From Escherichia coli (GTDB lineage: Bacteria; Pseudomonadota; Gammaproteobacteria; Enterobacterales; Enterobacteriaceae): a DNA stretch of 64,000 bases. Below are positions 36,001-39,000 of the stretch, piece after piece; position 1 is the stretch's first letter; every line of letters starts with the position of its first letter. Location: the NCBI RefSeq assembly GCF_041248615.1, contig NZ_CP158426.1, one strand, 5' to 3'. A program made the position numbers.

Positions 36001-39000
36001 CGTGCGCGCGAAAAAGTCGAACACGATTTTAACCAGCAGGTGATTAACCGAGAACTCGCCAGCTTGCTGCAGGCTTTATAGAGGAGAACGCATGCCATTT
36101 AAAAAACTCTCCCGACGCACCTTCCTGACGGCAAGCTCGGCGCTTGCCTTCCTCCATACCCCTTTCGCCCGTGCACTTCCTGCCCGGCAAAGCGTTAACA
36201 TTAACGACTACAACCCTCACGACTGGATCGCCTCATTTAAACAAGCCTTCAGCGAAGGGCAAACGGTCGTCGTGCCCGCCGGATTGGTTTGCGACAATAT
36301 CAACACCGGCATCTTCATTCCTGCAGGTAAAACGTTACACATCCTTGGAAGCCTGCGCGGCAACGGCAGAGGGCGATTTGTCTTACAGGACGGCAGCAAG
36401 GTGACAGGGGGGGAGGGCGGCAGTATACATAACATCACCCTGGATGTGCGTGGTTCTGACTGCACCATCAAAGGGCTGGTGATGAGCGGCTTTGGCCCGG
36501 TGACGCAGATCTATATCGGCGGCAAAAACAAACGGGTCATGCGCAACCTGACCATCGATAACCTCACCGTTAGCCACGCTAACTACGCCATCTTACGCCA
36601 GGGATTTCATAACCAGATTATCGGTGCCAATATCACCAATTGTAAGTTCAGCGACTTACAGGGCGACGCCATTGAATGGAACGTGGCAATTAACGACAGT
36701 GATATTTTGATCTCCGACCATGTGATCGAGCGCATCAACTGTACTAACGGCAAAATCAACTGGGGCATTGGCATCGGCCTTGCGGGAAGTACCTACGATA
36801 ATAATTATCCGGAAAACCAGGCAGTGAAAAACTTTGTCGTGGCGAATATCACGGGATCAGATTGTCGGCAACTGATCCATGTTGAAAATGGTAAACATTT
36901 TGTTATCCGTAATATCAAAGCTCGTAATATCACGCCGGATTTCAGTAAGAAAGCAGGTATTGATAACGCCACAGTTGCTATTTATGGTTGTGACAACTTT
37001 GTGATTGATAATATTGAAATGATTAATAGTGCCGGGATGTTAATTGGCTATGGGGTAATTAAAGGCAAATATCTCTCGATACCGCAGAATTTCCGAGTGA
37101 ATGATATTCAACTGGATAATACTCATCTTGCTTATAAATTGCGCGGCATCCAAATCTCCGCCGGGAATGCTGTCTCCTTTGTGGCGCTGACTAACATTGA
37201 GATGAAGCGTGCGTCGCTTGAGCTACACAATAAACCGCAACACCTTTTTATGCGAAATATCAATGTGATGCAGGAATCCTCTGTTGGACCCGCATTGAGC
37301 ATGAACTTCGACATGCGCAAAGACGTACGCGGTGTCTTTATGGCGAAAAAAGAAACACTGCTGTCTCTTGCAAATGTTCATGCGGTGAATGAAAAAGGAC
37401 AAATCTCCGTCGATATCGACAGGATTAATCACCATATTGTTAATGTGGAGAAGATTAACTTTAGATTGCCAGAACGGAGGGAGTAGATTTGCGACCATTC
37501 CTGGAAAAATGGAGCCATACTTAGGAACAATGCTACTGCAATCCACAACGAAGCGGCGTAACATCACAAGTAATTCAGTAATCAATTCAGGGTAATTGAT
37601 GCTGGCGAAAAAAATCGAACAAGCTATAATTCAGCAACCATTTTACAGGTGGATGAAATAATGACGAATTTAAAAGCAGTTATTCCTGTAGCGGGTCTTG
37701 GGATGCATATGTTGCCTGCCACTAAGGCGATTCCCAAAGAGATGCTACCGATCGTCGATAAGCCAATGATTCAGTACATCGTTGACGAGATTGTGGCTGC
37801 AGGGATCAAAGAAATCCTCCTGGTAACTCACGCTTCCAAGAACGCGGTCGAAAACCACTTCGACACCTCTTATGAATTAGAATCTCTCCTTGAACAGCGC
37901 GTGAAGCGTCAACTGCTGGCGGAAGTACAGTCCATTTGCCCGCCGGGCGTGACAATTATGAACGTGCGTCAGGGCGAACCTTTAGGTTTGGGCCACTCCA
38001 TTTTATGTGCACGACCTGCCATTGGTGACAATCCATTTGTCGTGGTGCTGCCAGACGTTGTGATCGACGACGCCAGCGCCGACCCGCTGCGCTACAACCT
38101 TGCTGCCATGATTGCGCGCTTCAACGAAACGGGCCGCAGCCAGGTGCTGGCAAAACGTATGCCGGGTGACCTCTCTGAATACTCTGTCATCCAGACCAAA
38201 GAGCCGCTGGACCGCGAAGGTAAAGTCAGCCGCATTGTTGAATTCATCGAAAAACCGGATCAGCCGCAGACGCTGGACTCAGACATCATGGCCGTTGGTC
38301 GCTATGTGCTTTCTGCAGATATTTGGCCGGAACTTGAACGCACTCAGCCTGGTGCATGGGGGCGTATTCAGCTGACTGATGCCATCGCTGAACTGGCGAA
38401 AAAACAGTCCGTTGATGCCGTGCTGATGACAGGTGACAGCTACGACTGCGGTAAAAAAATGGGGTATATGCAGGCATTTGTGAAGTATGGACTACGCAAC
38501 CTGAAAGAAGGGGCGAAGTTCCGTAAAGGGATTGAGAAGCTGTTAAGCGAGTAACAAATTCCTGACTGGAAGTGTCGGTCAGTAAGTAATTAAAAACGGC
38601 AGTGAAGATTCATAGCATAAGTTTTGCTCATTGAATCTCACTGCCGTTGTCTTTTTTATAAGTACAATAAAAACAGCATGTTAGCTTGCAATCATAGTTC
38701 AAATTTTTCCAGGATTTTCCTTGTTTCTACAGCTGTTTGGTAAGACAATTAGCGTTTGAATTTTTCGGATTTGGCACGAGTGGGTTACGCTCGTCACATC
38801 GTGGAAATGTACGCAGTACTCTGGTAGCTGTTAAGCCAGGGGCGGTAGCGTGCATTAATGCATCTATTAATCAAATCTGGAGCAGTCTATTTCACAGCAT
38901 GCTCTCTGGCTATATGGAATAAAAAAGTGAAGATACTTGTTACTGGTGGCGCAGGATTTATTGGTTCTGCTGTTGTTCGTCACATAATAAATAATACGCA

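Follow-up and report, generated by a model that had tools for sequence, protein, structure and literature searches.

Some bacteria that make an extracellular polysaccharide also make a periplasmic or secreted enzyme that cleaves it, as exemplified by RbmB of Vibrio cholerae (a lyase of Vibrio polysaccharide), ExoK of Sinorhizobium, AlgL, PslG, and PelA of Pseudomonas, and BcsZ of Escherichia coli. Such enzymes set the size of the polymer, release it, or clear it from the periplasm. They belong to enzyme families different from the one described below, mostly use other secretion routes, and mostly serve synthase-dependent rather than Wzx/Wzy pathways. A closer parallel is WceF of Pantoea stewartii, a beta-helix glycosidase with a twin-arginine translocation (Tat) signal, which is encoded in the stewartan cluster and whose knockout lengthens the polymer (PMC7949094). 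Enzymes against colanic acid are also carried by phages; the purified hydrolase of phage NST1 breaks this polymer down into oligomers of the repeat unit, with an ~80-fold drop in mass from 8.7 MDa to 107 kDa (PMC9143390). Here, we examined wcaM, a gene of the colanic acid cluster, in a stretch of 64,000 nucleotides of E. coli DNA (contig NZ_CP158426.1 of assembly GCF_041248615.1; the whole stretch is referred to as the window).

By sequence comparison, WcaM is a full-length homolog of the phage colanidases, a relationship that goes beyond a generic beta-helix. We infer that it belongs, as a secreted glycoside hydrolase, to the phage-colanidase family and attacks the colanic acid of the cell that makes it, and we assign this reading a probability of roughly 0.68. 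An earlier note on this DNA had proposed that WcaM may process colanic acid in the periplasm instead of serving as a biosynthetic enzyme in the cytoplasm, a proposal that gains computational support from the specific homology to colanic-acid-degrading tailspikes, including the active NST1 hydrolase. When WcaM was searched against all PDB sequences, the sole protein matched was gp150 of phage Phi92 (phmmer E = 2.5e-24), whose entry 6E0V is titled "colanidase tailspike protein" and "Apo." WcaM also matched PHROG 6117, "colanic acid degradation," over residues 86 to 460 (E = 2.9e-51), a Justusliebigvirus colanidase tailspike (BLASTP E = 3e-26), and, with residues 97 to 308, the NST1 hydrolase (HM214492; BLASTP E = 3e-12, 32% identity, 245 aligned columns). 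Tail proteins matching WcaM occurred in 248 phage genomes, where they were annotated as colanic-acid-degrading protein or colanidase tailspike. The hosts of these phages were almost exclusively Escherichia, Salmonella, Cronobacter, Klebsiella, Kosakonia, and Enterobacter, which are colanic-acid producers. Five Campylobacter phage records also carried a match of this kind. Campylobacter is not known as a colanic acid producer, so some members of the family may act on other capsular polysaccharides. A second PDB entry for gp150, 6E0W, probably shows the protein with a bound ligand, which would locate the active site; the searchable literature contained no publication accompanying 6E0V or 6E0W.

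WcaM thus shares a homologous catalytic beta-helix domain with Phi92 gp150 and its relatives in Justusliebigvirus, Phapecoctavirus, Vequintavirinae, and Asteriusvirus (PHROG 6117). These phage colanidases are 600 to 1,000 amino acids long, begin with a virion-attachment domain, lack a signal peptide, and are encoded in tail modules. In contrast, WcaM is encoded on the chromosome within the wca operon, carries a Tat signal in place of the N-terminal domain, and is without the extra C-terminal parts. Because it has neither a virion-binding domain nor a phage context, WcaM is not a tailspike but a cellular paralog of the catalytic domain. The NST1 enzyme likewise has a homologous catalytic core in which all WcaM motifs are kept, together with documented hydrolysis of colanic acid (PMC9143390), but it is a 790-amino-acid phage protein that works from outside the cell as a true capsule-stripping depolymerase. 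WceF and AmsF of Erwinia amylovora resemble WcaM in a different way: they are products of Wzx/Wzy-type clusters and combine a Tat signal with a tailspike-like beta-helix, and WceF is active on the polymer of its own cluster. Unlike WcaM, WceF is 736 amino acids long and retains an N-terminal head domain like that of the P22 tailspike. We rejected membership of WcaM in the WceF/AmsF family, given that gp150 was the sole PDB sequence match at E ≤ 10 and that WceF lay outside the top 50 to 60 structural matches. WceF is an analog of WcaM, not a member of its family.

The fold of the mature protein was evident from structure prediction, which the earlier note had named as a check on the right-handed beta-helix that it proposed. 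The AlphaFold2 model (mean predicted local distance difference test score [pLDDT] of 94; predicted template modeling score [pTM] of 0.90) was all-beta from residue 31, with residues 1 to 22 disordered, and it confirmed the beta-helix together with fold searches. In a viral structure library, the model matched six colanidase-type tailspikes with template modeling (TM) scores of 0.73 to 0.79 and E values of 3e-15 or better, below which there was a sharp break to generic beta-helices (E of 2e-6 or worse). RbmB, which is also a beta-helix, was the second-best Foldseek match to WcaM, with a TM score of only ~0.3. The periodicity expected of such a fold could be read from the sequence as well: N-[ILV]-polar triplets numbered 13 against 3.7 expected, a count matched by none of 5,000 shuffles, and many of the gaps between successive triplets were ~20 to 40 residues. 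The bare N-[ILV] dipeptide was not significantly enriched (16 versus 11.5; P ~ 0.07). WcaM had no match at E ≤ 1 to the generic Pfam beta-helix profiles Beta_helix (PF13229) and Pect-lyase_RHGA_epim (PF12708), and the distant homolog P0184 gave only weak or faint matches to such profiles, which miss WcaM because its family is too divergent for them.

In another reading, WcaM is an exported modifier of colanic acid that works as a lyase, epimerase, or transglycosylase instead of a hydrolase. We judge this quite improbable. The matches behind it span only ~290 to 350 residues at 10 to 16% identity and contain none of the family motifs, and we know of no epimerized residue in colanic acid. The specific relatives of WcaM, on the other hand, are described as hydrolases that yield repeat-unit oligomers (PMC9143390), and the word "colanidase" stands in the title of 6E0V.

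To characterize the candidate active site of the proposed hydrolase, we compared 68 diverse family members, drawn from the short Tat-bearing bacterial proteins and the long phage proteins. Three residues (G225, H263, and E265) were invariant in all 68. Close behind were D192 (99%), N197 (97%), Q260 (96%), and E195 (94%), while W224, G229, G232, and G299 were conserved in at least 90%. Conservation of D192, E195, N197, W224, G225, Q260, H263, and E265 was equal in the bacterial and phage sets. In the alignment of close orthologs, every conserved family residue that was checked (a list that does not include G232) was present in 117 of 117 sequences. The same motifs, written across the family as GD-IE-N, NWGIGIG-AG, RQ--H-E, and YGC, recur in gp150 and the NST1 enzyme. 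Specifically, motif 1 reads GDAIELN in gp150 and GDGIEMN in NST1, and motif 3 reads RQCLHVE and RQVVHFE, respectively. In the AlphaFold2 model, the motifs lie on strands 194 to 197, 226 to 231, 260 to 265, and 293 to 298. Since these strands are ~33 residues apart, the motifs would lie above one another on a single sheet, on four successive rungs, and make up a continuous surface.

The earlier note had also recognized a Tat signal at the N terminus, and its motif, physicochemical character, and conservation all fit that assignment. Compared with the S/T-R-R-x-F-L-K consensus, WcaM departs only at the final position, where K is replaced by T. Its hydrophobic (h) region is weakly hydrophobic (mean Kyte-Doolittle value of 1.16; best 10-residue window of 1.73), with values that fall among those of 11 accepted E. 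coli Tat signals and are lower than those of the classical general secretory (Sec) signals of OmpA, PhoA, LamB, and Bla. The C-terminal (c) region contains the basic residue R27, a Sec-avoidance feature, within an A-x-A cleavage site, A26-R27-A28. A twin-arginine pair in the form [ST]RRxF[LIV] was found in 116 of 116 full-length close orthologs, and R8 and R9 were invariant across the 117 aligned ortholog sequences. The pair was also found in 10 of 16 distant WcaM-sized homologs, compared to 2 of 49 long phage-type homologs. A lipoprotein fate was rejected because there is no cysteine near the cleavage site. The signal itself is already published and not new: the identical 28-residue peptide was called by TatP (PMC7549933), in agreement with our assignment, and WcaM is included in tables of E. 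coli and Salmonella Tat substrates as "experimentally verified" or predicted (PMC8262268, PMC3027627, PMC9604234).

These properties bear on the reading suggested by the database name and the operon position of the gene, namely, that WcaM is a cytoplasmic or membrane-associated biosynthetic enzyme for the colanic acid repeat unit and that its twin arginines are fortuitous. The use of ΔwcaM as a colanic-acid-deficient strain is in line with such a role, although that label was assumed rather than measured (PMC8171120, PMC6946639). We consider a biosynthetic WcaM highly improbable. A fortuitous pair is hard to reconcile with arginines that are invariant in 117 of 117 orthologs and recur in distant homologs, or with the presence of WcaM in published substrate lists. 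Pfam and PDB sequence searches revealed no similarity to glycosyl-, acetyl-, or pyruvyltransferases. Moreover, a published summary gives each step of the repeat unit to another Wca protein and assigns every other gene of the cluster to precursor supply, repeat-unit assembly, or polymerization and export, with WcaM left over (PMC9143390), which fits a nonbiosynthetic role. The label "biosynthesis protein" stems from the position of the gene in the cluster only.

Several points count against a secreted colanidase. WcaM is only 21 to 32% identical to the characterized phage enzymes, so its substrate or bond specificity could differ. The clustering of its conserved residues was deduced from strand register in a predicted model, not from measured distances. 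The Pfam profile TAT_signal (PF10518) scored below threshold on WcaM (12.5 bits against a cutoff of 22.7; E = 0.15), and an NCBIfam scan of the protein returned no Tat-signal profile of any kind; short signal-peptide profiles are insensitive. In the searchable literature, there was no enzymology, localization, or polymer analysis of WcaM. Furthermore, WceF is a slow, lectin-like enzyme (PMC7949094), which makes a mainly binding role conceivable. WcaM could then be exported but noncatalytic, with hydrolase activity lost or never used, and serve as a colanic-acid-binding beta-helix (a lectin or scaffold) to guide or organize the polymer, either in the matrix or where it meets the Wza/Wzc export machinery. 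We regard this as unlikely. The acidic, histidine, and glutamine residues common to the active phage enzymes are without exception in the WcaM orthologs and are kept as strictly by the cellular proteins as by the phage proteins, whereas degenerate, binding-only paralogs normally lose such residues. This set argues for active enzymes rather than degenerate binding modules.

A last point against the proposed hydrolase comes from deletion mutants. In Salmonella, ΔwcaM biofilms lose tolerance to hydrogen peroxide like a colanic-acid-negative strain, and tolerance is rescued by coculture with the wild type but not by wild-type supernatant (PMC8171120). Deletion of wcaM thus has a phenotype, which counters the objection of a deletion without effect that the earlier note had named. 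The phenotype resembles loss of polymer function, not an excess of polymer, and is not obvious for a purely degradative trimming enzyme. Hydrolases of the alginate and Pel/Psl systems are also needed for normal polymer production. Either productive release or export of colanic acid requires WcaM, or cells that lack it make a polymer that does not function properly.

Taken as a secreted colanidase, WcaM would work as follows. The gene is the last to be transcribed in the wza-wcaM operon, which is under Rcs control, and translation starts from a strong Shine-Dalgarno sequence right behind wcaL; this much is seen in the sequence, and the coregulation has been published. The precursor would fold into its right-handed beta-helix in the cytoplasm. 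As the motif and its conservation suggest, the Tat translocase would recognize S-R-R-T-F-L and export the folded protein, and signal peptidase would cut after A-R-A(28). In the periplasm or beyond, the surface of stacked strands, composed of D192/E195/N197, W224-G229, and Q260/H263/E265, would bind colanic acid and cleave a glycosidic bond within its backbone, a step modeled on the homologous phage enzymes and their shared motifs. By analogy with WceF, ExoK, AlgL, PslG, and BcsZ, the most likely purpose would be to regulate how long or viscous the polymer is and how it is released, or to clear polymer that builds up in the periplasm. This physiological role is the least certain part of the proposal, and the "trimming or quality control" suggested by the earlier note is one of several possibilities.

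A more specific version, which we consider rather unlikely, is that WcaM is a domesticated phage-tailspike catalytic domain that supplies the final step missing from colanic acid assembly. By cutting the growing polymer in the periplasm, WcaM would release it from its undecaprenyl-diphosphate-linked reducing end, set its chain length, or both. Such a terminal cut would explain why colanic acid is shed as free slime while group 1 capsules are cell bound; the group 1 capsule loci are without wcaM and have wzi instead (PMC6128206). It would also explain why ΔwcaM is functionally colanic-acid deficient (PMC8171120) and why the enzyme would be delivered fully folded via Tat.

The family to which WcaM belongs is small. 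An exhaustive search of 1.8 billion representative proteins recovered only 185 WcaM/colanidase members, which split into WcaM-sized proteins and proteins of 600 to 1,000 amino acids with the domain in an internal position. Phage members have N termini of the tail-fibre or tailspike type and are encoded between tail genes, as for the Justusliebigvirus "colanidase tailspike" and for P0129, whose module also encodes Dit-like and other tail proteins. Bacterial members carry a twin-arginine signal where phage members have the virion-attachment domain. Among them is P0123, a Tat-bearing homolog with 41% identity (locus L004, 10001 to 11344; GCA_000737915.1), which sits beside a colanic-acid-like cluster; the cluster contains gmd/fcl/gmm and encodes WcaD as well as a pyruvyl transferase and a WcaJ-type transferase. 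In this locus, gnd and a wcaJ-like gene flank P0123, which is transcribed divergently and is not the last operon gene; association with the cluster is conserved, while operon position is not. A more distant WcaM homolog adjoins a GT4 glycosyltransferase. In a neighbor-joining tree of the core domain, which carries no support values, Tat-bearing proteins fell in at least three places among the phage proteins. This pattern suggests repeated exchange of the domain between phages and hosts, with no direction of transfer given by so crude a tree.

Two further records stood out among the homologs. P0105, a 761-amino-acid protein from an ENA metagenome, joins WcaJ-type domains (PF13727 and PF02397) to a WcaM domain, which has 95% identity across 81% of the length of WcaM. 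The protein may be a wcaJ-wcaM fusion, possibly formed by deletion of wzxC-wcaK-wcaL, or an assembly artifact. P0049 is 76% identical to the E. coli protein and is labeled "Vagococcus sp. WN89Y," a Gram-positive genus; its assembly is likely contaminated or mislabeled.

Open-access text and bioRxiv contained no paper that describes WcaM as a hydrolase, a tailspike homolog, a colanidase homolog, or a beta-helix. Its fold and homology can already be seen in databases, both in the PHROG match and in the phage proteins that were named after WcaM. Colanidase homologs in phage tails are annotated "colanic acid biosynthesis protein (WcaM)" in OP921041 (H10), MW822008 (H11), and OM362897 (H31), and BFVD entry A0A0S1S1H9 of Klebsiella phage KB57 bears the same WcaM-derived name, transferred from an unproven host annotation. 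A misannotation is spreading, in which phage tail enzymes that degrade colanic acid are called biosynthesis proteins by transfer from WcaM. In at least one paper, a phage "wcaM superfamily protein" was interpreted as having a polysaccharide-modifying function (PMC6141743), so that the homology was read backwards.

The proposal has consequences for work on colanic acid itself. For the one gene of a well-studied E. coli and Salmonella cluster that had no assigned step, there is now a specific hypothesis: an endo-colanidase exported by Tat, for which candidate catalytic residues can be named. Several groups rely on ΔwcaM as their colanic-acid-negative strain. Should WcaM be a hydrolase, such strains may instead make altered colanic acid that is longer, retained, or misexported, and results obtained with them would need reinterpretation. 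WcaM would also become a second, independent case beside WceF of a Wzx/Wzy cluster with a Tat-exported tailspike-type glycosidase directed against its own product, and an example of the exchange of depolymerase domains between phages and hosts. Given WceF, a glycosidase of this self-acting kind would not be surprising in principle.

The features described above and the neighboring elements of the locus are located in Table 1.

Table 1. Coordinates of wcaM, the features of its product, and adjacent elements in the window.
Feature	Coordinates	Strand	Basis or remark
wcaM coding sequence	36092..37486	+	464 codons plus TAG
Predicted twin-arginine signal peptide, residues 1-28	36092..36175	+	Cleavage predicted after A28
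Twin-arginine motif S7-R8-R9-T10-F11-L12	36110..36127	+	Five specified consensus positions matched
Mature WcaM, residues 29-464, right-handed parallel beta-helix	36176..37483	+	AlphaFold2 model and fold searches
Core with direct homology to Phi92 gp150 and other phage colanidases, residues 163-349	36578..37138	+	Sequence searches
Motif 1, G191-D192-A-I-E195-W-N197, candidate catalytic acids	36662..36682	+	Conservation
Motif 2, W224-G-I-G-I-G229-L-A-G232, glycine-rich strand one rung below motif 1	36761..36787	+	
Motif 3, R259-Q260-L-I-H263-V-E265, His and Glu on the next rung	36866..36886	+	
wcaL (glycosyltransferase), directly 5' of wcaM in the operon	34861..36081	+	
Shine-Dalgarno sequence GAGGAG	36081..36086	+	Direct sequence reading; 5 nucleotides ahead of the wcaM ATG
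galF	37661..38554	+	3' of wcaM; O7-type O-antigen cluster after galF

The identification of the open reading frame as wcaM and its coordinates, given in the earlier note, stood: the translation of 464 amino acids reproduced the quoted N terminus exactly. Full-length matches to the NCBIfam profiles NF007517 (1017.4 bits; cutoff, 808) and TIGR04004 (964.3 bits; cutoff, 794.6) agree with it. Homologs of WcaM bear the precomputed Pfam family PF27800, "WcaM"; WcaM itself had no Pfam domain hit in the copy searched, which predates PF27800. At the DNA level, the gene is 100% identical to the annotated wcaM of several E. coli chromosomes. In the matching genomes, it is the final gene of wzb-wzc-wcaA...wcaL-wcaM, followed by galF and the O7-type O-antigen cluster, and here, too, it is the last colanic acid gene, as the earlier note had described, and lies ahead of galF. 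The Shine-Dalgarno sequence of wcaM shares the final base of the wcaL stop codon (TAG, 36079 to 36081). There was no promoter-like site 5' of wcaM in the scanned stretch (from 35900), and between wcaM and galF, a simple scan of the + strand detected nothing resembling a terminator, both of which are consistent with expression as part of the operon. Transcript levels of wcaM and wza run in parallel (PMC8117528).

A comparison of wcaM with 5426 complete E. coli genomes revealed an unusual degree of divergence within the species. Only 19 records had at least 99% identity, with 1658 at 95 to 99%, 2872 at 90 to 95%, and 85 at 80 to 90%, and 792 of the genomes had no wcaM match. This divergence and absence probably reflect recombination, with wcaM hitchhiking with the adjacent O-antigen locus, as well as replacement by group 1 capsule loci. 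Downstream, the start of galF depends on the convention used: a mechanical open reading frame begins at GTG 37649 (37649 to 38554), and the RefSeq-equivalent start is ATG 37661. The O7-type O-antigen cluster extends from ~38858 on (L001, 22836 to 36917) and includes rfbBDAC, O7 wzx and wzy, vioA, vioB, and a second manC/cpsG pair; it was assigned by identity to NZ_AP022087.

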